Assembly: GCF_965641715.1 (NCBI RefSeq)
Contig: NZ_OZ282453.1
DNA from: Escherichia coli
GTDB taxonomy: Bacteria; Pseudomonadota; Gammaproteobacteria; Enterobacterales; Enterobacteriaceae
DNA length: 64,000 nt
Strand: one strand, 5' to 3'
This document shows, piece by piece, positions 3,753-44,304 of the stretch (position 1 is the stretch's first letter; each line of letters opens with the position of its first letter). Under the pieces are notes generated by a model. The model saw only the letters and a program-made list of their open reading frames with translations, did no database searches and had not been told where the DNA came from. Both the position numbers and the translations under genes were made by a program.

Positions 3753-4066
3753 AACAGTCAATTGTCTCACTGGCGCAAGTCATTCGTTCGAAAAATGCCG
3801 GACCTTACGAACTGGTTTTAGATATTTTATTTAAAACGAAAGAAAACTATGAGCGAGTTAAATCATCAGGGCAATTAACCCCAGAACTGATTGCGCGCTT
3901 ATATCATGTTGAACCAGACTTTATTCATCGTATTGTCTGGTTTGATCCTTCTAACGCAGTAAAAATCGTCATGCCACGAGATATTATCTCCGGGAATGTA
4001 GGTGACAATGATGTCTATGGTGCACAGCAACATGCACCTTTATTAAATATGAGTTTCGATTTGTAA
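3749..4066 (+). CDS. small DUF4387-like protein, usual partner of DUF1446
   Basis: 105 aa ORF whose start overlaps the upstream stop by 4 nt (ATGA), implying translational coupling. Confidence 0.55.
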   Translation: MKQSIVSLAQVIRSKNAGPYELVLDILFKTKENYERVKSSGQLTPELIARLYHVEPDFIHRIVWFDPSNAVKIVMPRDIISGNVGDNDVYGAQQHAPLLNMSFDL

Positions 4067-4149
4067 TAATCCGAATACTTTTAGCCAACTGACATCCCGT
4101 CACTTATTGCAGTTCAACACTTCAGCTATTTGTAAGGTTGTAATAGCAG

Positions 4150-4181
4150 GTAGATGCCTGAATCTCTATTCAGGCATCTAC
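4150..4181 (+). terminator. perfect 14-bp stem hairpin (gtagatgcctgaat-ctct-attcaggcatctac), attenuator or operator candidate
   Basis: Inverted repeat read directly in the sequence between the DUF4387 gene and the transporter gene; downstream tract is only moderately T-rich. Confidence 0.45.
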
Positions 4182-4205
4182 TTCTCCTGATTCTGATTTA
4201 TCGCC

Positions 4206-5507
4206 GTGCACCTGATGGAGGAAAAAATGAAGAAAATAAGTTTAACCACGATGATTCTTTTGGCGCTGGTACTTGGAATGATTATCGGCGTAGTGCTTAA
4301 TAACACTGTTTCACCGGAAACAGCAAAACTCTATGCGCAAGAAATATCGATATTCACGACGATTTTCTTACGACTGATAAAAATGATTATCGCTCCGTTA
4401 GTGGTCTCTACCCTGGTGGTAGGTATTGCTAAAATGGGCGATGCCAAAGCCCTTGGTCGTATTTTTTCTAAAACACTCTTTTTATTTATTTGCGCCTCAT
4501 TGCTGTCAATTGCCTTAGGCTTGATAACGGTAAATTTCTTCATGCCAGGCACAGGAATTAATTTTGTTGCACACGGTGCCGAAACCACAGGAGTGGTCGC
4601 GTCAGAACCCTTTACGCTAAAAGTATTTATTTCGCATGCTTTCCCCACCAGCATTGTCGATGCCATGGCGCACAATGAAATTTTGCAAATCGTGGTGTTC
4701 TCAATTTTCCTCGGCTGTAGCCTGACGGCGATTGGAGAGAAAGGCAGCGCCATCGTTCACGCCTTAGATTCGCTGGCACATGCCATGTTAAAGCTCACTG
4801 GCTACGTCATGCTCTTCGCTCCCCTGACCGTATTCGCTGCTATTTCAGCATTGATTGCTGAACGAGGACTGGCAGTTATGGTGAGCGCCGGGATCTTTAT
4901 GGGTGAATTTTATTTCACCATGTTATTACTTTGGGTGCTGCTTATCGGTCTGGCCATCGTTTATGTCGGCCCCTGCATCAGACGCCTGACCCGCGCCCTT
5001 TCGGAACCCGCCCTGCTGGCATTTACCACATCCAGTTCTGAAGCGGCTTTTCCGGGAACGCTTGAAAAACTGGAGCAATTTGGCGTTTCCCCCAAAATTG
5101 CCAGCTTTGTCTTACCCATTGGCTACTCATTTAATCTCGTTGGATCAATGGCCTACTGCTCCTTCGCCACAGTTTTCATCGCCCAGGCCTGCAATATCCA
5201 TTTATCCATCGGTGAGCAAATCACCATGCTGTTGATCCTGATGTTGACCTCGAAAGGAATGGCTGGCGTACCACGCGCCTCAATGGTGGTTATCGCCGCC
5301 ACGCTCAACCAGTTCAATATTCCGGAAGCGGGGCTGATCTTGCTGATGGGCGTTGATCCGTTCCTTGATATGGGGCGTTCCGCGACAAACGTCATGAGCA
5401 ACGCAATGGGCGCTGCGATGGTGAGTCGGTGGGAAGGCGAACATTTCGGCGAGGGCTGTCGGGGTAAAGCATTAAAACCCAATGAATCGAACGTTGCTCT
5501 GCCCTGA
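4206..5507 (+). CDS. dicarboxylate/amino acid:cation symporter (DAACS, GltP/DctA-like)
   Basis: 433 aa polytopic membrane protein with DAACS-like motifs (…FIAQ…, …GVPRAS…); start may be the internal ATG at 4227 (MKKISLT…). Confidence 0.8.
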   Translation: MHLMEEKMKKISLTTMILLALVLGMIIGVVLNNTVSPETAKLYAQEISIFTTIFLRLIKMIIAPLVVSTLVVGIAKMGDAKALGRIFSKTLFLFICASLLSIALGLITVNFFMPGTGINFVAHGAETTGVVASEPFTLKVFISHAFPTSIVDAMAHNEILQIVVFSIFLGCSLTAIGEKGSAIVHALDSLAHAMLKLTGYVMLFAPLTVFAAISALIAERGLAVMVSAGIFMGEFYFTMLLLWVLLIGLAIVYVGPCIRRLTRALSEPALLAFTTSSSEAAFPGTLEKLEQFGVSPKIASFVLPIGYSFNLVGSMAYCSFATVFIAQACNIHLSIGEQITMLLILMLTSKGMAGVPRASMVVIAATLNQFNIPEAGLILLMGVDPFLDMGRSATNVMSNAMGAAMVSRWEGEHFGEGCRGKALKPNESNVALP

Positions 5508-5614
5508 GGGGGATCTTAAGCAATCAGAAGCCAATGACTACGCATTTTTATAAGCCGGATCAAGAAGTTAGACGGCAATTAAGTAACACTAACGTTTAAG
5601 GTGAAAAGTGAAAT

Positions 5615-7267
5615 ATGTCCAAACCATTTATCTGGCAAGAACCGTTTCTACAAAATAAAGACGGTACAGAATATACATTAATTAGCGATCAACATATTAC
5701 AGTAACGGAATTAGACGGCGAAGAAGTGATAAAAATCGCTCCTGAAGCATTAACGCTGCTTGCCCGGCAGGCATTTTATGAAGCCTCTTTTTTCTTACGT
5801 TCCGCTCATTTGCAACAGGTCGCCAGCATTCTTAACGATCCGCAGGCCAGCAGTAATGATAAATACGTTGCGTTGCAGTTATTACGTAATGCTGAAGTCT
5901 CAGCAAAAGGGGTATTACCCAACTGTCAGGATACCGGCACCGCAACTATTATTGCCAGTAAAGGGCAACAGATATGGACCGGAGGTAACGACGCCGAAGC
6001 CTTAAGCAAAGGCATTTACACCACTTTTCAGGAAAATAATCTGCGCTTTTCACAAAATGCGCCGCTGGATATGTATACCGAAGTCAATACGCAAACCAAT
6101 CTCCCGGCGCAGATTGATATCTGCGCCGTCGCTGGTGATGAGTACCATTTCCTCTGTGTTAATAAAGGAGGCGGCTCTGCCAATAAAGCCGCGCTTTATC
6201 AGGAAACCAAATCCTTATTGCAACCAGAAAAACTGACCGCATTTTTAATCGAAAAAATGAAATCGCTGGGCACCGCTGCCTGCCCGCCTTACCACATCGC
6301 CTTTGTCGTCGGAGGGCTTTCAGCCGATCAAACCTTAAAAATTGCCAAGCTGGCCTCAACGAAATATTACGACAATTTGCCCACCAGCGGAAACGAGCAG
6401 GGACAAGCATTCCGTGATATTGAGCTGGAAAAAGCGTTGCTCGAGGCCAGTCAGCAATTTGGTATTGGTGCACAATTTGGGGGGAAATATTTCGCTCATG
6501 ATATTCGCGTCATTCGTCTGCCGCGTCACGGTGGCTCTTGCCCGATAGCTATGGCGCTCTCCTGTTCTGCCGATCGCAATATCAAAGCAAAAATTAACAA
6601 ACACGGTATCTGGCTGGAAAAACTCGAACACAATCCGGGGCAATATATTCCAGCCTCACTGCGGGAAGAAAATCACGCGCAACATGTACAACTGGATCTA
6701 AACCGTCCGTTGCGTGACGTGATGCTGGATCTCGCCAGATTACCGGTAGGCACCCGCGTGTCGTTAAGTGGTCCCATCGTAGTGGCGCGCGATATCGCCC
6801 ACGCCAAAATAAAAGCGCGGCTGGATAGCGGTGAATCGATGCCGGAGTACCTGAAGCATCATATTGTCTATTACGCTGGCCCGGCGAAAACACCGGAGAA
6901 CATGGCCTGCGGTTCACTGGGTCCAACTACGGGCGGTCGAATGGACGGTTATGTCGATACCTTCCAGGCGGCCGGCGGCAGTCTGGTGATGTTATCGAAA
7001 GGGAACCGCAGCCAGCAGGTCACCGATGCTTGTCACAAACATGGCGGCTTCAATCTGGGAAGTATTGGCGGTGCAGCTGCGTTACTGGCGCAAGAATATG
7101 TCAAAAGTCTGCGTTGCCTGGAATACCCGGAGCTGGGTATGGAAGCGGTGTGGATGATGGAAGTGGAAAATCTGCCCGCATTCATCCTGGTAGATGATAA
7201 AGGCAATAATTTCTTTAGTCTGTTTGAGCAGCAACACCGCTGCGCCAGTTGCCCTGCGGGACATTAA
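5615..7267 (+). CDS. fumD: class I (Fe-S) fumarate hydratase paralog, probable mesaconase/fumarase
   Basis: 550 aa, collinear with and highly similar to E. coli FumA as recalled; context with glutamate mutase and methylaspartase suggests mesaconate hydration. The symbol fumD is from memory of the O157:H7 literature. Confidence 0.8.
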
Positions 7268-7276
7268 GGAAAATGA

Positions 7277-7879
7277 ATGGAAGCGCGAATTTCAACTGAA
7301 CGGCATGTGCAGCGCCAACAGAAATTGAAGGAACAGGTCGATACGCGCGTCGCAGCGGCGATAGAGAAAAAAGGGATCTTGATTGTTTTCACCGGCAACG
7401 GCAAAGGGAAATCCACTGCCGCGTTTGGTACTGTGACGCGCGCGGTGGGTCATGGCAAAACGGTGGGGGTTGCGCAGTACATCAAGGGGCAATGGGACAA
7501 CGGCGAATACAACCTTCTCCAGCCGCTGGGGGTTGAGTTTCATATTATGGGAACCGGTTTTACCTGGGAGACACAGAACCGGCAAGCGGATATCGACGCG
7601 GCGAAAGAGGTCTGGTCGGAAAGCAAACGGATGCTGGCTGACAAGCGTTACGACTTAGTGGTGCTTGATGAGCTGACCTATATGCTGGCTTACCATTATC
7701 TGGATACCGAAGAAGTGATCGCTTCTCTGCAAAACCGCCCGGCACAACAAAGTGTCATTGTCACCGGACGCGGTTGCCACAGTCAGATATTAAAAATGGC
7801 AGATACGGTCAGCGAAATCCGCCCCGTCAAACATGCTTTTGATAACGGCATTCAGGCCCAGCCGGGTATCGACTGGTAA
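7277..7879 (+). CDS. ATP:cob(I)alamin adenosyltransferase (BtuR/CobA/CobO family)
   Basis: 200 aa with a P-loop (GNGKGKSTAAFG) typical of BtuR-type adenosyltransferases; fits the AdoCbl requirement of glutamate mutase. Confidence 0.8.
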   Translation: MEARISTERHVQRQQKLKEQVDTRVAAAIEKKGILIVFTGNGKGKSTAAFGTVTRAVGHGKTVGVAQYIKGQWDNGEYNLLQPLGVEFHIMGTGFTWETQNRQADIDAAKEVWSESKRMLADKRYDLVVLDELTYMLAYHYLDTEEVIASLQNRPAQQSVIVTGRGCHSQILKMADTVSEIRPVKHAFDNGIQAQPGIDW

Positions 7880-7882
7880 TAA

Positions 7883-7914
7883 CTGCGCCTGGCATCCCGC
7901 CAGGCGCAGGTTTT
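7883..7914. terminator. bidirectional intrinsic terminator between convergent genes
   Basis: 11-bp perfect stem (ctgcgcctggc / gccaggcgcag) followed by TTTT, sitting between the adenosyltransferase stop and the LysR stop. Confidence 0.55.
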
Positions 7915-8818
7915 ACATCTCCTGCGGTACGACCGATTTCGCCAGCAACCATTCACGAAATTGCTGCAAGTGCGGTGAGTCAGATTTCTCTTCCTGCCAC
8001 GTCATAATAAAACGATTACCGGTACGAATAGGCACATCACAGGGAATCACCATATCGCCACTATCCAAATCATGTTGAATAGCGAACCGTGGTAACAGCG
8101 CCACGCCGAGATTAGAGCGCACGGCGGCAATCAGCATTGAAAGCAAATCGAAACGTGGTCCGTTGTTGACCAGCGGACTACTAACGCCAGATAAAGCAAA
8201 CCACTCTTCCCAGCCAGTAATACGGGTGCTTTGATGCAGAAGTGGTAACTCAGTAAGCAGTTCTGCCACTGACAGTTTTTGATCGGACATTGCAAGCAAA
8301 CTGCCGCTGCATACCGGCAAAATCTCCTCATCAAAGAGATATTCTACTTCCGCCCAGGGTGCGCAAAAATTTTCGCGCATAATGACAGCATCGTACTCCC
8401 GATTAAGAAAATCGCCGTTATTAGCTAAAGAATGAATATTAACAATAATATCGGGATGTAACTTTGTGAATTCATGTAAATTTGGGATTAACCAGTGGGT
8501 ACTAAAAGTAGGATTAACGGCAAGTTCAATAACCTGAACCGTAGGCTGCCAGGTCATAATGGTATTGGTATCGCGTTCCAGCTTATTTAATGTTTCTTTT
8601 ACTATCCCCAGGTAATACTTCCCTTTATCATTAAGAAAAATGCGTTTTTTAGAGTGTGAAAATAACGGAGTACGTAAAAATTCCTCCAGCGCACTTACTT
8701 GTCTGAATACTGCACTTTGGGTTAACGCTAACTCCTCTGCCGCTCTGGTATAACTTTCATGACGTGCGACGACCTCAAAAGTCACCAGCAGTTCCGTTTT
8801 AGGTATTTTCCCTCGCAT
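7913..8818 (-). CDS. LysR-family transcriptional regulator
   Basis: 301 aa; N-terminal HTH (…FEVVARHESYTRAAEELALTQSAVFRQV…) typical of LysR-type regulators. Confidence 0.85.
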   Translation of the reverse strand: MRGKIPKTELLVTFEVVARHESYTRAAEELALTQSAVFRQVSALEEFLRTPLFSHSKKRIFLNDKGKYYLGIVKETLNKLERDTNTIMTWQPTVQVIELAVNPTFSTHWLIPNLHEFTKLHPDIIVNIHSLANNGDFLNREYDAVIMRENFCAPWAEVEYLFDEEILPVCSGSLLAMSDQKLSVAELLTELPLLHQSTRITGWEEWFALSGVSSPLVNNGPRFDLLSMLIAAVRSNLGVALLPRFAIQHDLDSGDMVIPCDVPIRTGNRFIMTWQEEKSDSPHLQQFREWLLAKSVVPQEM

Positions 8819-9100
8819 AATGCCGTCCCTTAAAAATAGTTTAAACCATCAAAAATACATTACTTATTACGAAGTAATGGTAACCAAAGCAGCAATAAAT
8901 AATTTATAAGAATCATGATTGACATTTATAAACCAGTAAGGCTGGCGTGACAAATATCTTAATCAGATAATAATAATCCGAAAAGCACAGCGCCTTTCGA
9001 ATTATCCGGAATCACATTAAGTGAAAATTATTAAATTGATATCATTTATCATATCTGTGGATATTATGATAAACAATCAACAAAGATTTTATTTTTGATT
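8819..9100. promoter_or_regulatory. AT-rich upstream region of the LysR gene
   Basis: About 280 bp of very AT-rich DNA immediately 5' of the LysR start; no specific motif assigned. Confidence 0.3.
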
Positions 9101-9383
9101 TATAGCATATCCCTCTAAGAATTTTTGCGATGCTGCAATATCCGGGGTAAAGACCCGATCCTGGCTGACAAATGGCACGACTTGACGAAAAGCGGTGAAC
9201 ATCGCTTTTGTTGATTTACTTAACGCTACGGTCAAACGCTGGGAAGCCAGTGCATCAGGTAACGATTCGAAATTCGCCGTCGTTCTTATTCGTGGCTTGC
9301 GGTCGGTTGCGGCAATCCACAGTGGCTGTGGTCATGCAGTCAAGCCTGCAGTCAGATTTCGACCGTGGTTAACCGTTTAAGGC

Positions 9384-9484
9384 ATAAAAAAGGCCATCAT
9401 ACGATGGCCAACCATGTCGAAACCGACAGCCCTTCGCCATTCCTGTAGAGGGAAGCGGCGAGGGCTATTTCTTATTACAGATAT
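9384..9484 (-). ncRNA. sdhX: 3'-UTR-derived sRNA SdhX (RybD) with its intrinsic terminator
   Basis: Lies immediately 3' of the sucD stop on the minus strand; terminator hairpin ggccatcgtatgatggcc followed by a U-run, as at the K-12 sucD 3' end. Confidence 0.6.
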
Positions 9485-10354
9485 TTATTTCAGAACAGTT
9501 TTCAGTGCTTCACCGATATCCGCCAGGCTGCGAACGGTTTTCACGCCTGCGGCTTCCAGAGCAGCGAATTTCTCATCCGCAGTCCCTTTCCCACCGGCAA
9601 TGATGGCACCCGCGTGGCCCATACGTTTGCCTTTCGGCGCAGTCACACCAGCGATGTAACCCACAACTGGCTTGGTAACGTGCTCTTTGATGTACGCAGC
9701 TGCTTCTTCTTCAGCGCTACCGCCGATCTCACCGATCATCACGATCGCTTCGGTCTGCGGATCTTTTTCGAACATTTCAAGAATGTCGATAAAGTTAGAG
9801 CCAGGGATCGGGTCACCGCCGATACCGACACAGGTCGACTGACCGAAACCGTAATCCGTGGTCTGTTTAACCGCTTCATAGGTCAGTGTACCGGAACGGG
9901 AAACGATACCCACTTTACCCGGTTTGTGAATGTGACCCGGCTGAATACCGATTTTGCATTCACCCGGAGTGATAACGCCTGGGCAGTTCGGGCCGATCAT
10001 ACGAACGCCTGCTTCATCCAGCTTCACTTTCACAGTCAGCATATCCAGCGTCGGGATGCCTTCAGTGATGGTGATAATCAGTTTGATGCCTGCGTCGATG
10101 GCTTCCAGAATGGAGTCTTTGCAGAACGGTGCTGGTACGTAGATAACAGAAGCGGTAGCGCCAGTAGCAGCAACAGCTTCACGCACGGTGTTGAACACCG
10201 GCAGGCCGAGGTGGGTAGTACCGCCTTTACCTGGAGTTACGCCACCAACCATTTTGGTGCCGTATGCAATGGCCTGTTCAGAGTGGAAAGTCCCCTGGCT
10301 ACCGGTAAAGCCCTGGCAGATAACCTTGGTGTTTTTATCAATTAAAATGGACAT
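9485..10354 (-). CDS. sucD: succinyl-CoA synthetase alpha subunit
   Basis: 289 aa, [24 protein letters not shown]…. Confidence 0.97.
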
Positions 10355-11520
10355 TATTTCCCCTCCACTGCGGCAACAACCTGCTGAGCTGCATCCGTCA
10401 GACCTTTTGCTGCAATAATATTCAGGCCGCTGTCAGCCAGTTTCTTCGCGCCGAGTTCGGCGTTGTTACCTTCCAGACGTACCACGACCGGTACGTTAAC
10501 ACCCACTTCCGCTACCGCGCCGATGATACCGTCAGCGATCAGGTCGCAACGAACGATACCGCCGAAGATGTTAACCAGAACGGCTTTCACTTTGTCGTCA
10601 GAGAGAATGATTTTGAACGCTTCGGTTACACGTTCTTTGGTTGCGCCGCCGCCAACGTCAAGGAAGTTAGCTGGTTCGCCGCCGTGCAGTTTAACGATGT
10701 CCATCGTACCCATCGCCAGACCTGCGCCGTTAACCATACAACCGATGTTACCGTCCAGCGCAACGTAGTTCAGTTCCCACTGTGCAGCCTGTGCTTCACG
10801 CGGATCTTCCTGCGACTGGTCACGCATTTCGCGCAGATCAGGCTGGCGGAACAGGGCGTTGCCATCAGCGCCCAGTTTGCCGTCGAGGCAAATCAGATCA
10901 CCCTGTTTGGTGATGACCAGCGGGTTGATTTCGATCAGCGCCAGATCGCGTTCCAGGAAAATGGTCGCCAGGCCCATGAAGATTTTGGTGAACTGCTGAA
11001 CCAGTTTACCTTCCAGACCCAGTTTGAACGCCAGCTCGCGTCCCTGATACGGCATCGGGCCAGTCAGTGGATCAAGCGCAACTTTGTGGATCAGATGCGG
11101 AGTTTCTTCCGCCACTTTTTCGATTTCCACGCCGCCTTCGGTGGAGGCCATAAAGACCACGCGACGGGAACTACGGTCTACAACGGCACCGAGGTACAGC
11201 TCTTTAGCGATATCGGTCGCTGCTTCAACCAGAATCTGGTTAACCGGTTGGCCATTAGCATCTGTTTGATACGTTACCAGACGCTTGCCGAGCCAGTTTT
11301 CTGCAAAAGCACGGATGTCTTCTTTGCTGTTTACAACTTTCACACCGCCCGCTTTACCGCGGCCACCAGCGTGAACCTGACATTTCACTACCCACGGACC
11401 GGCACCGATTTTTGAAGCGGCTTCTTCTGCTTCGCGCGGAGTAGTACAGGCATAACCCACCGGTGCTGGTAAGCCATAGCGGGCAAACAGTTGTTTTGCC
11501 TGATATTCATGTAAGTTCAT
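10354..11520 (-). CDS. sucC: succinyl-CoA synthetase beta subunit
   Basis: 388 aa, [18 protein letters not shown]…; overlaps the sucD start by 1 nt. Confidence 0.97.
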
Positions 11521-11559
11521 GTGTTCTGTCCATCCTTCAGTAATCGTTATCTTTTAAAC

Positions 11560-11860
11560 CGTAGACCGAATATTTCGTATCGCTCCCGGGTATTGTCGGT
11601 CACCCGTAGGCCTGATAAGACGTGTAAGCGTCGCATCTGGCATCGCTTGTCGGATGCGGCGCGAGCGCCTTATCCGACCTACATCGGTGCTTCCCGTAGG
11701 CCTGATAAGACGTGTAAGCGTCGCATCAGACATCGCTTGTCGGATGCGGCGCGAGCGCCTTATCCGACCTACATTGGTGGTCCCGTAGGCCTGATAAGAC
11801 GCGTCAGCGTCGCATCAGGCTTCAATTGCCGGAGAAGGCGATAATGCCTTATCCGGTCTA
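11560..11860. repeat. BIME/REP array, three ~95-bp units
   Basis: Three near-identical units containing gcctgataagacg…gcgtcgcatc…cggatgcggcg…ccttatccgacctac palindromes in the sucB-sucC intergenic region. Confidence 0.85.
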
Positions 11861-11883
11861 CAGTGCAGGTGAAACTTAAACTA

Positions 11884-13101
11884 CTACACGTCCAGCAGCA
11901 GACGCGTCGGATCTTCCAGCAACTCTTTGATCGTTACCAGGAAGCCCACGGATTCGCGACCATCGATCAGACGGTGATCGTAGGACAGCGCCAGGTACAT
12001 CATCGGCAGGATCTCAACCTGACCATTCACAGCCATCGGACGATCTTTGATAGCGTGCATACCCAGAATTGCGCTCTGCGGCGGGTTGATGATCGGCGTA
12101 GACATCAGGGAACCGAACACACCACCGTTGGTGATGGTGAAGTTACCACCGGTCAGATCTTCAACCGTCAGCTTGCCGTCACGGCCTTTAACTGCCAGCT
12201 CTTTGATTTTCTTCTCGATGTCTGCCATGCCGAGGGTATCGACATCACGCAGTACCGGCGTCACCAGGCCGCGCGGCGTAGAAACCGCCATGCTGACGTC
12301 GAAATAGTTGTGGTAAACCACGTCATCGCCGTCGATAGAAGCATTCACTTCCGGGTAACGTTTCAGGGCTTCAACCACCGCTTTCACGTAGAAGGACATA
12401 AAGCCCAGACGGATGCCGTGGCGTTTTTCAAACGCTTCACCGTACTGCTTACGCAGATCCATAATCGGCTTCATGTTGACTTCGTTGAACGTGGTCAGCA
12501 TGGCGGTGGAGTTTTTCGCTTCCAGCAGACGCTCTGCCACACGCTTACGCAGGCGAGTCATCGGGACACGTTTTTCACTACGTGCAGCCAGAGCCGGTTG
12601 CGCCGCCGGAGCAGCCGCTGCCGGTGCAGACTCTTTCGCCGGGGATTTCGCCAGATGTTTTTCCACATCTTCACGGGTCAGACGACCACCCACACCGGTG
12701 CCTTTAATGGCGCTGGCGTCGAGGTTATGTTCAGCCAGCAAGCGACGGATCGCCGGGCTTAACGCATCGTTGTTTTGCTCTTCCAGAGACGCCTGCTGGC
12801 GTTGCGCCGGAGTGGACGCTTTCTCTTCAGATTTGGCGCTGGTTTCTTTACCGGCGCTGTTGCCTTCACGCAGGCGACCAAGGATCTGACGAGACGTTAC
12901 CGTTGTACCTTCATCTTTCAGAACCGCATCCAGAATGCCGTCTGCTGATGCCGGTACTTCCAGTACCACTTTGTCAGTTTCGATTTCTACCAGCACTTCA
13001 TCACGTACGACTGCGTCGCCGGGTTTTTTATGCCAGGTTGCGACGGTGGCATCGGCTACGGATTCAGGCAGGTCAGGGACCAGAATATCTACGCTACTCA
13101 T
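11884..13101 (-). CDS. sucB: 2-oxoglutarate dehydrogenase E2 (dihydrolipoyl succinyltransferase)
   Basis: 405 aa, [26 protein letters not shown]…. Confidence 0.97.
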
Positions 13102-13115
13102 TGTGTATCCTTTAT

Positions 13116-15917
13116 TTATTCGACGTTCAGCGCGTCATTAACCAGATCTTGTTGCTGTTTCTGGTGAACGGACATATACCCTACCGCCGGAGAGGCGGAG
13201 GCCGGGCGGCCTGCATAACGCAGAGAAGCCCCAAACGGAATCACTTCACGGAAATGATGCTGGCTGCAGTACCATGCGCCCTGGTTGAGCGGCTCTTCCT
13301 GGCACCAGACAAAATCCTTGACGTGAGCAAACTGCTGCAACACTTCCTGCATCGCTTTATGCGGGAACGGGTAGAGTTGCTCGATACGCACAATGGCGAC
13401 ATCGTGTTGATTGTTCTTACGACGTTGTTCCAGCAGGTCGTAATAAACCTTACCAGAACACATCACTACGCGCTTCACGCCCTTCGGATCAAGCTCGTCG
13501 ATTTCACCGATGGCTGGCAGGAAGGTGCCGTTCGCCAGTTCTTCGAGGCTGGAAACCGCCAGCGGATGACGCAGCAGGGATTTCGGCGACATCACGACCA
13601 GCGGACGACGCATCCCGCGCAGCGCCTGACGACGCAGCATGTGGTAAACCTGTGCCGGGGTAGACGGTACGCACACCTGCATGTTTTGCTCAGCACAAAG
13701 TTGCAGATAACGTTCCAGACGCGCGGAGGAGTGCTCCGGCCCCTGCCCTTCGTAACCGTGCGGCAGCAACATCACCAGACCACACATCCGGCCCCATTTC
13801 TGTTCGCCAGAGGAGATGAACTGGTCGATAACCACCTGCGCACCGTTGGCGAAGTCACCGAACTGCGCTTCCCAGATGGTCAGAGTGCGTGGTTCTGCGG
13901 TGGCATAACCGTATTCAAACGCCAGCACGGCTTCTTCAGACAGTACGGAGTCCCAGACGCGGAACGCGCCCTGCCCGTTATGGATGTGTTGCAGCGGCGT
14001 GTAAGTGGAACCGTTAGACTGGTTGTGGATCACCGCGTGGCGGTGGAAGAAGGTACCGCGACCGGAGTCTTCACCCGACAGGCGAACCGGAATGCCTTCG
14101 TCAACCAGCGTGGCGTAAGCGAGGTTTTCCGCGCCGCCCCAGTCGAACAGTTTCTCACCGGCAGCCATCGCCTGGCGATCGCCATAAATCTTGGCAACGC
14201 GAGACTGCATTTCAACCGCTTCCGGCACCGTACTGATGCGTTTAGCCAGTTCCTGCAGGCGCTTCATCTCAACTTTGTTCGGGTACTCTTCGTCCCATTC
14301 GTGGTTGAGATACGGCGACCAGGTGAAAGAGTGCATGTTCATCGGACGCCACTCTGCCACTACGCAATCGCCAGCATCCAGCGCATCGCGGTACAGGTTA
14401 ACCATCTCGGTGGCATCTTCCAGCGTCGCCACTTTTTCCTGCTCCAGCTTGTCAGCGTAGATTTTGCGCGGTGTCGGATGTTTTTTGATTTTCTGATACA
14501 TCAGCGGCTGGGTTGCGCTCGGCTCGTCGGCTTCGTTGTGGCCGTGACGGCGGTAGCACACCAGGTCGATGAAGACATCACGTTTAAAGGTGTTACGGAA
14601 ATCGAGCGCCAGACGGGTCACAAAGGCAACGGCTTCCGGATCATCCGCGTTAACGTGGAAAATCGGTGCCTGAACCATCTTACCGATATCAGTACAGTAC
14701 GGTGTAGAACGAGCATCCAGCGGATTAGAGGTGGTGAAACCAACCTGGTTGTTGATAACGATACGTACCGTACCGCCAACTTCATAACCACGCGCTTTCG
14801 ACATGTTCAGAGTTTCCTGAACCACGCCCTGCCCGGTCACTGCGGCGTCACCGTGGATGGTGATTGGCAGCACTTTGTTGCTGCTCGGCTCATCAAGTCT
14901 GTCCAGACGGGCACGAACAGAACCGATAACTACCGGGCTTACAATCTCAAGGTGAGACGGGTTAAACGCCAGCGCCAGGTGCACCAGGCCGCCATCGGTC
15001 TGGAAGTCAGACGAGAAGCCCATGTGGTATTTCACGTCACCCGTGCCGAGGTGTTCTTTATGTTTACCGGCAAACTCGTCGAACAAGTCTTGCGGTTTTT
15101 TACCCAGCACGTTCACCAGCACATTCAGACGACCACGGTGCGCCATCCCGAGAACCACTTCGCGGGTGCCGCTGTTGCCGGCATGGCGGATCATCTCTTT
15201 AAGCATCGGGATTAACGCGTCACCGCCTTCCAGCGAGAAGCGTTTTGCGCCAGGGAATTTTGCACCAAGGTAACGTTCAAGGCCTTCAGCGGCGGTCAGT
15301 TCGCTTAAGAAGCGTTTTTTCTCTTCGCTATTGAAAGTCGCGCGACCAGACTCGATACGCTGTTGGATCCAGCGTTTTTCTTCGGTGCTGGTAATGTGCA
15401 TATACTCGGCGCCAATCGGGCCGCAGTAGGTTTGCTTGAGAGCTTCCAGCAGGTCGCCAAGTTTCATGGTTTCTTTGCCGCTGGCAAATGAACCGACGTT
15501 GAAGGTCTCCTGGAAGTCTGCTTCGGTCAGATCGTGGAAAGACGGATCCAGATCGGCCACTTTATCTTGCTGCCACAGTCCCAGCGGATCGAGATTCGCA
15601 TGCTGGTGACCACGGAAGCGGTATGCGTTAATGAGCTGCAGGACTTTTACCTGCTTCACATTGGTGTCAGGGTCGGAGATCGTTGAAGAGTAACGTGAAG
15701 CGTCTTTCGCCAGGCGGCGGAAATATTCACGCGTTTGAGAGTGGAATTGATCCGGTTTGACTCCCGTACCAGGTAACTGCTGGAACGTCGAACGCCAGTT
15801 AGCGTCAACCGAGTCAGGATCGGTTAAGAAGTCTTCATAGAGCTGTTCTATCCAGCTCTGGTTTGCGCCAGAGAGGTAAGAAGAGTCCAACCAGGCTTTC
15901 AAAGCGCTGTTCTGCAT
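13116..15917 (-). CDS. sucA: 2-oxoglutarate dehydrogenase E1 component
   Basis: 933 aa, [31 protein letters not shown]…. Confidence 0.97.
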
Positions 15918-16094
15918 CGTGATCCCTTAAGCATCTTTTTTATGCTTACTTCGCCGTGGATACTACCACGCACAGTGATGTGCGTGCCGGGGTTCACTTG
16001 CGAGCTCTTGTCTACGTAGTGGCTCGCGAAGGAACCTTTAAAAACTGTCTTAGTGTCAGGGGCAGTTTTTAAAGATTTCCTGCATTTCTTTGTT

Positions 16095-16217
16095 ACGCCT
16101 GATGCGCTGCGCTTATCAGGCCTACGGGTAATGACTTGTAGGCCGGATAAGGCGTTCACGCCGCATCCGGCACTGGTTGCCTGATGCGACGCTTGCGCGT
16201 CTTATCAGGCCTACGGT
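16095..16217. repeat. REP elements in the sdhB-sucA intergenic region
   Basis: gcctgatgcg…cttatcaggcctac and gccggataaggcg…gcatccggc palindromes. Confidence 0.8.
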
Positions 16218-16934
16218 TTACGCATTACGTTGCAACAACATCGACTTGATATGGCCGATGGCGCGCGTCGGGTTCAGCCCCTTCGGACATACACTGACGC
16301 AGTTCATGATGCTGTGACAGCGGAATACACTGAATGCATCGCTCAAACCGTCGAGGCGGCTGTCAGTCTCGGTATCACGGCTATCGATCAGGAAACGATA
16401 TGCCGCTAACAAGCCTGCCGGGCCGATAAACTTATCGGGATTCCACCAGAAAGACGGACAAGAGGTTGAACAACATGCGCAGAGAATACATTCATACAGC
16501 CCGTCGAGTTTTTCGCGCTGCTCTGGCATCTGTAAATGCTCGCGAGCTGGCGGATTTTGTTCATTATTCAACAGGTAAGGCTTAATTTTCTCATATTGCG
16601 CATAGAATTGTCCCATGTCTACCACCAAATCGCGGATCACCGGTAAACCTGGCAGAGGGCGAATCACAATCTTCTTGCCCGGCTGGTTGAGTGCCGAAAT
16701 CGGGGTAATACAGGCCAGACCATTCTTGCCGTTCATGTTCAGACCGTCGGAACCGCACACACCTTCACGACAGGAGCGACGGAACGACAGGCTGGGATCT
16801 TTCTCTTTCAGCTGGATAAGCGCATCCAGCAGCATCATGTCGCGACCTTCATCCGCTTCCAGGGTGTAATCCTGCATACGCGGAGCATCATCAACATCCG
16901 GGTTATAGCGATAAATTGAAAACTCGAGTCTCAT
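16218..16934 (-). CDS. sdhB: succinate dehydrogenase iron-sulfur subunit
   Basis: 238 aa, MRLEFSIYRYNPDVDD…. Confidence 0.97.
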   Translation of the reverse strand: MRLEFSIYRYNPDVDDAPRMQDYTLEADEGRDMMLLDALIQLKEKDPSLSFRRSCREGVCGSDGLNMNGKNGLACITPISALNQPGKKIVIRPLPGLPVIRDLVVDMGQFYAQYEKIKPYLLNNEQNPPAREHLQMPEQREKLDGLYECILCACCSTSCPSFWWNPDKFIGPAGLLAAYRFLIDSRDTETDSRLDGLSDAFSVFRCHSIMNCVSVCPKGLNPTRAIGHIKSMLLQRNA

Positions 16935-16949
16935 TTTCCTGTCTCCGCA

Positions 16950-18716
16950 TTAGTAAGTACGAATCTTCGGCGGGAATGCCGGGCGCAGTTTCGGTTCCAT
17001 GTTGACGCTTCGGCGCGTCATGGATTCCGACTCTGGCAGATACAGGGAGTGGCACAGCCAGTTTTCATCATCACGATCCGGGAAGTCGAAGCGGCTATGC
17101 GCGCCACGGCTTTCGGTACGGAAGTTGGCAGAAACAGCCGTTGCATACGCCGTTTCCATCAGGTTATCCAGTTCCAGGCACTCAACGCGCTGGGTGTTGA
17201 ACTCGCTGGAAGTGTCATCCAGACGGGCATTTTTCAGACGCTCGCGGATAACTTTCAACTGCTCAAGCCCTTTCGCCATCGCATCACCTTCACGGAAGAC
17301 CGAGAAGTTATGCTGCATACATTCTTGCAGCGCTTTACGAATCGCCACCGGATCTTCACCGTTACGATTATTGTTCCAGCGGTTCAGACGATCCAGAGAC
17401 GCTTCAACATCAGACTCGCTGGCATCGCGCAGTGCACCCTGCTCGGCGATAGACTCTTGCAGATGCAGACCTGCCGCACGACCAAAGACCACCAGGTCCA
17501 GCAGCGAGTTGCCGCCCAGACGGTTAGCACCGTGTACCGATACGCAGGCAATTTCACCTACCGCGAACAGCCCCGGAACAACCACATCTTCGCCTTTCTC
17601 ATTCACAGTCAGCGCCTGACCGGTCACTTTGGTCGGAATACCGCCCATCATGTAGTGACAGGTTGGGATAACCGGAATCGGCTCTTTCACCGGATCAACA
17701 TGAGCGAAGGTACGGGAAAGCTCCAGGATACCCGGCAGACGGGATTCGAGAACTTCTTTACCCAGGTGATCGAGTTTCAGTTTCGCGTGTGGCCCCCACG
17801 GACCATCACAGCCGCGACCTTCACGGATTTCGATCATGATGGAACGCGCCACCACATCACGGCCCGCCAGGTCTTTGGCGTTCGGCGCATAACGCTCCAT
17901 AAAGCGTTCGCCATGTTTGTTCAGCAGATAACCGCCTTCACCACGGCAACCTTCGGTGACCAGTACACCCGCACCGGCAATGCCGGTCGGGTGGAATTGC
18001 CACATTTCCATATCCTGCACCGGTACGCCTGCGCGGATAGCCATGCCGACGCCGTCGCCGGTGTTAATGTGGGCGTTAGTGGTAGACTGATAAATACGCC
18101 CTGCTCCGCCAGTCGCCAGCACGGTAGCGCGGGCTTTAAAATAAACCACTTCACCGGTTTCGATGCACAGTGCGGTACAACCCACCACCGCACCATCCTG
18201 GTTTTTCACCAGATCCAGCGCATACCACTCGGAGAAAATGGTGGTGTGGTTTTTCAGGTTCTGCTGATAAAGCGTGTGCAACAGTGCGTGACCGGTACGG
18301 TCAGCAGCCGCCGCGGTACGTGCCGCCTGCTCGCCGCCGAAGTTTTTCGACTGACCGCCAAACGGACGTTGATAGATACGACCATCATCGAGACGCGAGA
18401 ACGGCAGGCCCATGTGTTCGAGTTCCAGAATCGCTTCCGGCCCGGTTTTACACATATATTCAATCGCGTCCTGGTCACCGATATAGTCCGACCCTTTTAC
18501 GGTGTCGTACATATGCCATTCCCAGTTATCTTCATGGGTATTACCCAGCGCAACGGTAATGCCGCCTTGCGCAGAAACGGTATGGGAACGGGTCGGGAAG
18601 ACTTTAGAGAGCAGCGCACAGGTCTGGCCGCTCTGGGAAATTTGCAGCGCCGCGCGCATACCTGCGCCGCCGGCACCAATCACAACTGCATCAAATTCTC
18701 TGACTGGCAATTTCAT
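16950..18716 (-). CDS. sdhA: succinate dehydrogenase flavoprotein subunit
   Basis: Canonical start [19 protein letters not shown] taken; the ORF track adds four upstream codons. Confidence 0.95.
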
Positions 18717-19063
18717 CACACACCCCACACCACAACGAATCCATAAATCACGTAAACCACCAGTGCAACGACAATCACCAGTTGCAGCATCAGGCGCAAA
18801 GCCAGCGGTTTAACGTAGTCGGTCAACACCTGCCACATGCCGATCCAGGCATGGATCAAGATAGAAAACAGCGCCAGCAGGGTGAACACTTTGGTGAACG
18901 CAGAGGCGAAGAAACCGATCCAGACTTCATATGTCAGCTCGCCACTGGTGGCGAAAAAACCGACCATATAAATGATGTAGAGCGTCAGGACGATAGCGGT
19001 AGCGCGAACGAGGATGAAATCATGTACGCCATTGCGTCCTAATGCGGAGGCGTTGCTTACCAT
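18716..19063 (-). CDS. sdhD: succinate dehydrogenase membrane anchor subunit
   Basis: 115 aa, [21 protein letters not shown]…. Confidence 0.95.
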
Positions 19064-19446
19064 ACGAGGACTCCTGCGAGAAGTGAAAGCACGACAGTAA
19101 TAACAAAGGAGATTTTGGCGGAGCGTTTACCCGCTTCGAATGTTTCTTCCAGATAGCCAAAATCCATCATCATGTGGCGAATACCTACGACGACGTGATA
19201 CGCCAGAGCGGTAAGGATGCCCCACATGATAAATTTGACGAAGAAGCTGCCCATAATCGCGGAAGCTTGCTCGAAACCTTCAGGGGAAGAGAGGCTGGTA
19301 CCCAGAAGCCACAGCAGGATACCCACTGCAACAAAGGTGATCACACCGGAAACGCGATGGAGAATGGACGCTATCGCCGTGATGGGGAACCGGATGGTCT
19401 GTAGGTCCAGATTAACAGGTCTTTGTTTTTTCACATTTCTTATCAT
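19057..19446 (-). CDS. sdhC: succinate dehydrogenase cytochrome b556 subunit
   Basis: 129 aa from [16 protein letters not shown]…; the ORF track's upstream ATG is rejected. Confidence 0.93.
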
Positions 19447-20154
19447 GAATAACGCCCACATGCTGTTCTTATTATTCCCTGGGGACTACGGGCACAGAGG
19501 TTAACTTTCTGTTACCTGGAGACGTCGGGATTTCCTTCCTCCGGTCTGCTTGCGGGTCAGACAGCGTCCTTTCTATAACTGCGCGTCATGCAAAACATTG
19601 CTTCCAGATGCGAAAACGACACGTTACAACGCTGGGTGGCTCGGGATTGCAGGGTGTTCCGGAGACCTGGCGGCAGTATAGGCCGTTCACAAAATCATTA
19701 CAATTAACCTACATATAGTTTGTCGGGTTTTATCCTGAACAGTGATCCAGGTCACGATAACAACATTTATTTAATTTTTAATCATCTAATTTGACAATCA
19801 TTCAACAAAGTTGTTACAAACATTACCAGGAAAAGCATATAATGCGTAAAAGTTATGAAGTCGGTATTTCACCTAAGATTAACTTATGTAACAGTGTGGA
19901 AGTATTGACCAATTCATTCGGGACAGTTATTAGTGGTAGACAAGTTTAATAATTCGGATTGCTAAGTACTTGATTCGCCATTTATTCGTCATCAATGGAT
20001 CCTTTACCTGCAAGCGCCCAGAGCTCTGTACCCAGGTTTTCCCCTCTTTCACAGAGCGGCGAGCCAAATAACAAACGGGTAAAGCCAGGTTGATGTGCGA
20101 AGGCAAATTTAAGTTCCGGCAGTCTTACGCAATAAGGCGCTAAGGAGACCTTAA
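19447..20154. promoter_or_regulatory. divergent gltA / sdhCDAB-sucABCD promoter-operator region
   Basis: About 700 bp AT-rich intergenic region between divergently transcribed gltA and sdhC; known in E. coli as a multi-regulator control region. Confidence 0.7.
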
Positions 20155-33559: not shown

Positions 33560-33675
33560 GATGCCTGATGCGACGCTTGACGCGTCTTATCAGGCCTACG
33601 TATTTCCTGCAATTTATTGAATTTGCACAAATTTGTAGGCTGGATAAGGCGTTCACGCCGCATCCGGCATCTGGG
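33560..33675. repeat. REP elements between dtpD and phr
   Basis: gcctgatgcgacgcttgacgcgtcttatcaggcctac and ggctggataaggcgttcacgccgcatccggc. Confidence 0.8.
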
Positions 33676-44005: not shown

Positions 44006-44288
44006 GGGTTGAAATGCCGGATGCGGCGTAAACGCCTTATCCAGCCTACTCATCGTCCCGTAGGCATGATAAGACGCGTCAGCGTCGCATCAGGCATGGC
44101 TCTGTGAATAACGTCGGCAAAAACTGGAAAAAGACCCCGCCCTCGCCATTTCATTACCGAAACCGGTATTGGGTATCGGTTTATGCTTTAGGGGCTGACT
44201 TGCCGGATGCGGCGTGAACGCCTTATCCAGCCTACTCATCGTCCCGTAGGCATGATAAGACGCGTCAGCGTCGCATCAGGCATTGGCA
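43927..44288. repeat. tandem direct duplication (~190-bp period, 2 copies) of the kdpE 3' end plus a REP pair
   Basis: Copy 1 at 43927-44098 and copy 2 at 44117-44288 are near-identical; each carries the last ~80 nt of kdpE followed by gccggatgcggcg…ccttatccagcctac and gcctgatgcgacgctgacgcgtcttatcatgcctac palindromes. Confidence 0.85.
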
Positions 44289-44304
44289 CTCATGGCTAAA
44301 TATT

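Follow-up and report, generated by a model that had tools for sequence, protein, structure and literature searches.

A three-unit BIME-2 array in the sucB-sucC spacer of an Escherichia coli sucABCD operon

The REP stabilizer between malE and malF is the classical model of REP-mediated mRNA stability. REPs are dispersed, high-copy elements tied to a dedicated transposase (PMC3333891), and in BIME-2 elements y and z2 REPs stand in inverse orientation with a short linker, in tandem copies that vary between strains (Ton-Hoang et al., PMC3333891). BIME-1 elements join y to z1 through a long L linker with an IHF site and occur as a single copy (PMC3333891), and units of the REP325 type have been implicated in HU-dependent nucleoid condensation (PMC4550694). 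The sucB-sucC locus of K-12 has itself been called a BIME-2 in print and is one of two BIME-2 elements that DNA gyrase cleaves at multiple sites in vivo; at this locus, gyrase cleavage prefers y REPs, and its signal rises rather than falls with rifampicin (PMC6379681). A REP-containing mRNA decay intermediate from sucB-sucC, with the two-unit allele of K-12, accumulates in rhlB pcnB mutants, according to PMC4372235, which cites Khemici & Carpousis 2004. The experiments on the decay intermediate and on gyrase concern this two-unit K-12 allele, not the three-unit one. The element class, its presence at the locus, gyrase cleavage, mRNA-decay behavior, and BIME copy-number variation are all already published, and the array is an ordinary, textbook BIME-2 of small discovery value.

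We analyzed a 64,000-nucleotide stretch of E. coli DNA (the window), in which the suc genes all lie on the minus strand and an untranslated spacer of 363 bp (11521-11883) separates sucB from sucC inside the sdhCDAB-sucABCD operon. The sucB stop codon, TAG at 11886-11884, is followed by a second in-frame TAG (TAG TAG; window 11881-11886), and the Pfam domains Biotin_lipoyl, E3_binding, and 2-oxoacid_dh were found on a protein identical to SucB. An earlier note on this DNA had described a triple BIME/REP array within the operon, in the gap from sucB to sucC, and the ORF list together with the RefSeq annotation (minus strand) bears this location out. In the direction of the mRNA, the features are as follows.

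13116-15917, minus strand: sucA (ORF list)
11884-13101, minus strand: sucB (odhB), 2-oxoglutarate dehydrogenase E2 (ORF list; RefSeq annotation under near-identical matches)
11862-11883, minus strand: gap of 22 nt from the sucB stop codon to the GTAG head of the first REP (sequence read directly)
11828-11861, minus strand: REP 1, degenerate y, GTAG head on the mRNA strand (GTAGACCGGATAAGGCATTATCGCCTTCTCCGGC; head match 11848-11861; hairpin -16.4 kcal/mol)
11821-11827, minus strand: tail-to-tail linker of 7 nt between REP 1 and REP 2
11785-11820, minus strand: REP 2, z2 (GCCTGATGCGACGCTGACGCGTCTTATCAGGCCTAC; inverted repeat, head motif, Rfam; hairpin -21.6 kcal/mol, z -4.9)
11773-11784, minus strand: head-to-head linker of 12 nt between REP 2 and REP 3
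11739-11772, minus strand: REP 3, y (GTAGGTCGGATAAGGCGCTCGCGCCGCATCCGAC; inverted repeat, head motif, Rfam; hairpin -19.2 kcal/mol)
11732-11738, minus strand: linker of 7 nt between REP 3 and REP 4
11696-11731, minus strand: REP 4, z2 (head motif, Rfam; hairpin -15.2 kcal/mol)
11683-11695, minus strand: head-to-head linker of 13 nt between REP 4 and REP 5
11649-11682, minus strand: REP 5, y, identical to REP 3 (inverted repeat, head motif, Rfam; hairpin -19.2 kcal/mol)
11642-11648, minus strand: linker of 7 nt between REP 5 and REP 6
11606-11641, minus strand: REP 6, z2 (head motif, Rfam; hairpin -12.8 kcal/mol)
11561-11601, minus strand: degenerate REP-like remnant ending in CGGTCTAC (inverted repeat, arms 11558-11572 and 11850-11864)
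11521-11560, minus strand: conserved sucC leader and ribosome-binding region, 40 nt (GGTTTAAAAGATAACGATTACTGAAGGATGGACAGAACAC; alignment)
10354-11520, minus strand: sucC, succinyl-CoA synthetase beta subunit (ORF list; RefSeq annotation under near-identical matches)
9485-10354, minus strand: sucD (ORF list)

Two programs confirmed the array, which consists of three tandem units. Tandem Repeats Finder returned a single array in the spacer (11603-11820; period 90, 2.4 copies, 93% matches), and the repeat search resolved three 90-nt copies in register, the first at 11603-11692, the second (11693-11782) matching it at 94%, and the third at 11782-11871 (76%). The copies are spaced by 90 and 89 bp, giving a unit period of 89-90 bp; the earlier note thus had the number of units right but not their length, which it put at ~95 bp, and its span of 11560-11860 fits only roughly, the REPs beginning ~45 bp after that start and the repeat running slightly past that end. 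The six REPs occupy 11606-11861, and the repeat extends to 11871 when the trailing linker is included. Read along the mRNA, each unit consists of a y REP with GTAG first (34 nt), a 7-nt linker, a z2 REP ending in CTAC (36 nt), and a linker of 12-13 nt. The divergent unit is the sucB-proximal one, whose y palindrome is degenerate. The REP head motif CTTATCMGRYCTAC matches six times in the spacer on alternating strands (-,+,-,+,-,+) and 18 times across the whole window, against 0.08 matches expected by chance and none of 100 shuffles reaching 18. The CGGTCTAC end of the remnant forms an inverted repeat with the GTAGACCG head of REP 1, and the two thus frame the whole array with a GTAG and a CTAC; taken alone, the remnant folds no better than shuffles (z -0.3).

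The element is a BIME-2, made of three tandem units in the sucB-sucC spacer, each with a y and a z2 REP in inverse orientation. All six palindromes are 34-36 nt long, within the 30-40 nt of the imperfect, stem-loop-forming palindromes that define REPs, all six carry the GTAG foot (CTAC on the other strand), and the sequence is both extragenic and multicopy, the query matching a median of 10 places per E. coli genome. In the Rfam alignment, a y REP (CCGGAUAAGGCG...CGCCGCAUCCGG) is followed by an inverted z2 REP (CCUGAUGCGACGC...GCGUCUUAUCAGG) in alternation, a typing that follows the published consensus of the two types. Linkers of 7 nt and tandem copies that vary between strains (0, 2, or 3 units) agree with the BIME-2 class as well. 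The BIME/REP identity given in the earlier note is upheld by the six head motifs and by the Rfam alignment of the units, but the regularity that it called unusual is the defining habit of BIME-2 (PMC3333891). A BIME-1 (RIP/RIB) was ruled out by the 7-nt linkers, the tandem repetition, and the lack of an IHF consensus, WATCAANNNNTTR having no match in 11521-11883. A REPtron was likewise rejected, as the adjoining genes are sucB and sucC, with no neighboring tnpA-REP/RAYT gene for a Y1 transposase, and the element is a dispersed BIME.

Single REP hairpins fold at -12.8 to -21.6 kcal/mol, with z <= -3.3 in five of the six, and the whole spacer folds at -158.6 kcal/mol (z -8.5 vs shuffles). Every unit can be aligned over the full length of naRNA4 (RF02564), a two-hairpin Rfam model of 77 positions that was built from the BIME-2 cluster REP325 and has a gathering score of 59.5 bits. 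The units at 11699-11769 (67.7 bits) and 11609-11679 (64.9 bits) pass this score; the sucB-proximal unit at 11788-11858 (56.4 bits) falls below it because its y stem, that of REP 1, has six non-standard pairs in the Rfam alignment. We read the naRNA4 match as one of REP325-like sequence and fold, and it is not evidence of nucleoid function. A 107-aa ORF on the plus strand (11521-11844) runs antisense to the operon across most of the REP array and was treated as spurious; such ORFs and sRNA-model matches arise from the array, and annotators should disregard them.

REPs were also identified elsewhere in the window. The sdhB-sucA intergenic region (16112-16214) holds three, namely, a long z2-like, a y, and a short z1-like REP, and gives the best naRNA4 match of the window (88.4 bits); this match is on the plus strand, so that, with respect to transcription, its y and z REPs come in the reverse of the order found in the sucB-sucC array. 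A REP pair at 33586-33648 overlaps a match to the Rfam sRNA ES036/CssrF (33592-33634, minus strand, 75.1 bits vs a gathering score of 37.6), which suggests that this Rfam family is itself REP-derived. At 44020-44290, four variant REP heads (CTTATCCAGCCTAC, CTTATCATGCCTAC) form two head-to-head pairs 186 bp apart, in a tandem duplication of ~186 bp that comprises a BIME and roughly 110 bp of non-REP sequence. E. coli genomes also carry BIME-2 units closely related to those of the array next to prpE and ruvB, and in some genomes such units make up long unannotated arrays, about 700-745 bp in length (matches H125 and H157-H159). Downstream of sucD, the window carries genes for a class I fumarate hydratase and a dicarboxylate/amino acid:cation symporter (4206-8818; RefSeq annotation of matches). 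K-12 presumably has mngR there instead, in which case 4206-8818 would be an accessory insertion.

The number of units differs between strains, as the earlier note had claimed, with 0, 2, or 3 units found at the locus across the 5,426 complete E. coli genomes compared. We counted the array-free allele with a specific 68-nt probe and took genomes in which the spacer and its flanks were covered at >=80% as array-bearing. The former was identified in 3,402 of the 5,426 genomes (63%) and the latter in 2,011, so that 5,413 genomes are accounted for. Unit number was read from a systematic sample of 60 rows down the ranking and extrapolated to the 2,011 array-bearing genomes. On this basis, a span of 565 bp (three units) in 14 sampled rows scales to ~1,280 genomes; one of 474 bp (two units, as in J53 derivatives and other K-12-type genomes) in 7 rows scales to ~640; and one of 461 bp, a variant with an internally deleted z2, in 1 row scales to ~90. 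Among about 40 sampled array-bearing rows, no span longer than 565 bp and no allele with one unit or with four or more was seen; a synthetic 10-unit query cannot rank copy number, as its BLAST pieces reuse the same subject units. The variant with the deleted z2 comes from E. coli EC67 (L004; NZ_CM128672.1, spacer 401-661), where the second z2 of a 261-bp allele is internally deleted (GTCTGATGCGACATCAGGCCTAC) and the first unit is only 90% identical to that of K-12, far more divergent than typical E. coli core sequence.

Three units were found in strains ATCC 11303 and T7Express, both of the E. coli B lineage, two units in a 274-bp spacer in K-12-type genomes, and no array in W, IAI1, and O157:H7 EDL933. 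The array-free spacer measures 93 bp and contains CTGTAGACCGACGTGGATAGGGTGTCGGTCTACGG, a GTAG-stem-loop-CTAC hairpin of about -22.5 kcal/mol; in these genomes, the two outer arms pair into one hairpin. The exact allele of the window is absent from the complete-genome set, the best match being 98.2% identical over the spacer and flanks, and window positions 4000-20000 are at most 99.2% identical over 16 kb to any of the 5,426 genomes; an identical stretch of 4,218 bp was found in a contig of the draft assembly GCA_910705265.1. The window thus comes from an Escherichia/Shigella lineage that has no close counterpart among the complete E. coli genomes. O157:H7 strains, which themselves lack the array, match its short flanks at 100% identity. 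The sucB-proximal unit of the window is 100% identical to that of K-12, and its distal unit matches that of strain TUM13936 exactly. In each of the two three-unit lineages, the middle unit is closer to its own distal unit (93%) than to the middle unit of the other lineage (89%), a pattern that points to independent duplication or to concerted evolution of the units, either of which would fit the copy-number instability of BIME-2.

Such variation raises a serious rival explanation, namely, that the array is a selfish or neutral repeat tolerated in a permissive spacer, its copy number drifting with no selected effect on suc expression. We regard this as possible, though on the doubtful side. The array is dispensable in most strains, so that any effect it has is non-essential and could be neutral, and any tuning of the sucAB:sucCD ratio must be dispensable too, because 3,402 of 5,426 genomes do without it. 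This absence favors neutrality, as do the occurrence of 0-, 2-, and 3-unit alleles in healthy laboratory lineages, the independent duplication of units in separate lineages, the allele with a broken z2 (L004), and the dispersed, high-copy, transposase-linked nature of REPs (PMC3333891). Against neutrality stand the decay intermediate and the gyrase cleavage documented at the sucB-sucC locus, and the presence of a REP or another stable hairpin at this position across the whole order, which argues for some structural requirement just downstream of sucB.

This last point comes from a pattern scan of species-representative genomes, in which 117 usable Enterobacterales sucB-sucC spacers were obtained among the matches listed. 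Their median length is 114 bp (range 56-354 bp), and their folding z-scores against shuffles have a median of -3.7, lying below -2 in 88% of these 117 spacers, a set that includes non-REP GC hairpins and the terminator-like hairpins with a T-run of Rosenbergiella. We aligned ten spacers from 10 species of five genera (Escherichia, Citrobacter, Salmonella, Klebsiella, and Enterobacter) and found conserved flanks, an invariant GTAG and CTAC, and, between these two, a hypervariable interior of half a REP, one REP, or a y/z pair; the sucC leader (11521-11560) is nearly invariant in all five genera. Salmonella, Citrobacter, Klebsiella, and Enterobacter all carry a REP or a REP pair at the position between the invariant GTAG and CTAC. 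From these comparisons, the site just downstream of sucB has long carried a stable stem-loop, a REP in the Escherichia-Salmonella-Citrobacter group, and the two- or three-unit BIME-2 appears to be an expansion of that stem-loop site in part of E. coli. The site in some Citrobacter species has a y-like REP with GGTCTAC, a hint that a deletion may have given rise to the array-free allele of E. coli. For E. albertii and E. fergusonii, the matches listed included no sucB-sucC locus. In two Rosenbergiella loci (L011 and L013), spacers of 56-57 bp hold a GC hairpin followed by TATTTTTT(T), resembling an intrinsic terminator, where E. coli has REPs.

Taking these results with the published experiments, we consider it highly probable that the array acts as a BIME-2 that blocks 3' exonucleases on the sucAB mRNA and serves as a gyrase site, with turnover by duplication and deletion of units. 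In the mRNA of the two-unit K-12 allele, the REP hairpins survive as small decay intermediates whose removal depends on the RhlB helicase and poly(A) polymerase, and they thus act as barriers to 3'-to-5' exonucleases. In the three-unit allele, six hairpins in a row would then protect the sucAB segment after endonucleolytic cuts downstream. The sucAB mRNA would thereby be favored over sucCD, on top of repression by small RNAs at the sucC ribosome-binding site. GcvB represses sucC translation by targeting the conserved sucC leader (PMC9299463), and Spot42 likewise targets the leader and ribosome-binding region, according to work cited in PMC6393394. The array itself probably originated and changed in copy number by duplication and deletion of units at a site where REPs have been present from a time before the split of the enteric genera, either through slippage or unequal recombination between the 90-bp units or through TnpA-REP strand exchange at the GTAG/CTAC heads.

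The earlier note had proposed that such elements can stabilize upstream mRNA or act as partial terminators, and that the array may in this way tune the sucAB:sucCD expression ratio. Stabilization accords with the published REP decay intermediate at sucB-sucC (PMC4372235), whereas the array shows no intrinsic-terminator signature. Partial termination, either intrinsic or through Rho acting on the lengthened untranslated gap, would attenuate transcription and lower read-through into sucCD; the gap is indeed 363 nt as compared with 93 nt in the array-free allele, and some Erwiniaceae carry a terminator-like hairpin with a T-run in the spacer (L011, L013). BIME-associated attenuation was reportedly described by Espeli and colleagues in J Mol Biol in 2001. 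We searched the array for a hairpin followed by a T-run and found no such site, and the mRNA strand of the spacer has no run of four or more T. The spacer RNA makes a poor Rho loading site because it is heavily structured and nearly equal in G and C (98 G and 97 C, with the C/G ratio of 78-nt windows peaking at only 1.47). No sigma-70-like promoter was found in or around the spacer, by which an internal sucCD promoter there was rejected, and strong termination would starve an enzyme of an essential pathway, since the spacer supplies sucCD with no separate promoter. A literature query on a described sucAB terminator or a REP in sucABCD returned nothing useful. A terminator-type role is therefore less likely than the exonuclease barrier, and we judge it decidedly improbable in its own right. 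Ribosomes are stalled by a REP only when it lies no more than about 15 nt from the stop codon; the first REP here is 22 nt from the stop codon of sucB.

The gyrase-site role at the DNA level is shown at this locus (PMC6379681) and had been absent from the earlier note. In the DNA of the two-unit K-12 allele, the element is a strong, transcription-independent gyrase cleavage site. A further alternative makes this role the main one, the array being a gyrase-binding, cruciform-capable site that absorbs the positive supercoils of a heavily transcribed 10-kb operon or organizes the nucleoid, with the RNA effects as by-products. The multiple in vivo cleavage sites at sucC-sucB, the rise of their signal with rifampicin, and the preference for y REPs (PMC6379681) fit this account, as does the part played by REP325-type units in HU-dependent nucleoid condensation (PMC4550694); yet most E. 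coli genomes have no array at the locus, and a DNA-level role is compatible with the RNA role, both being documented. As the primary function, we find it unlikely.

Under the combined reading of exonuclease barrier and gyrase site, more units would mean more barrier and more gyrase sites, so that the alleles would differ only quantitatively. Tuning of the sucAB:sucCD ratio by the array is plausible, though unproven. A single stem-loop may already saturate the barrier function, as the array-free allele keeps a hairpin of -22.5 kcal/mol. At the far end of the range lies a reading to which we give very little credence, in which a stem-loop downstream of sucB is selected across Enterobacterales as a 3'-end barrier or attenuator separating sucAB from sucCD, and the 0/2/3-unit polymorphism is a heritable, stepwise rheostat of the ratio or of local supercoiling; if true, it would explain part of the differences in TCA-cycle expression between the K-12, B, and W lineages. 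E. coli offers a natural allelic series here, with 2 units in K-12, 3 in the B lineage, and 0 in W and O157:H7, and existing RNA-seq and proteomics data from those lineages could cheaply test BIME copy number against the sucAB:sucCD ratio.

Among known systems, the malE-malF stabilizer is likewise an intercistronic REP cluster, which stops 3' exonucleases on a polycistronic mRNA and so shields the cistron upstream of it; it lies in a different operon and has a different REP composition, and for suc the upstream:downstream effect is one that we infer. BIME-1 elements share with the suc array their inverted pairs with y REPs, whereas the suc array lacks z1, the long L linker, and an IHF consensus and is tandem rather than single-copy. 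The likeness to REP325/naRNA4 is closer, each suc unit aligning over the full 77-position model and two of the three passing the gathering score, although REP325 is a six-unit cluster at another locus, the suc array lies inside an operon, and the two hairpins of a suc unit are joined by a linker that is 6 nt shorter. The sucB-sucC BIME-2 of K-12 has the same locus, the same flanks, the same y/z2 pairs, and the same 7-nt tail-to-tail linkers; it differs in having two units in a 274-bp spacer where the window has three in 363 bp, and the distal units of the window represent another sequence variant, with CTCGCG as the loop of y and CTTACACG as that of z2, and share 88-91% identity with the distal unit of K-12.
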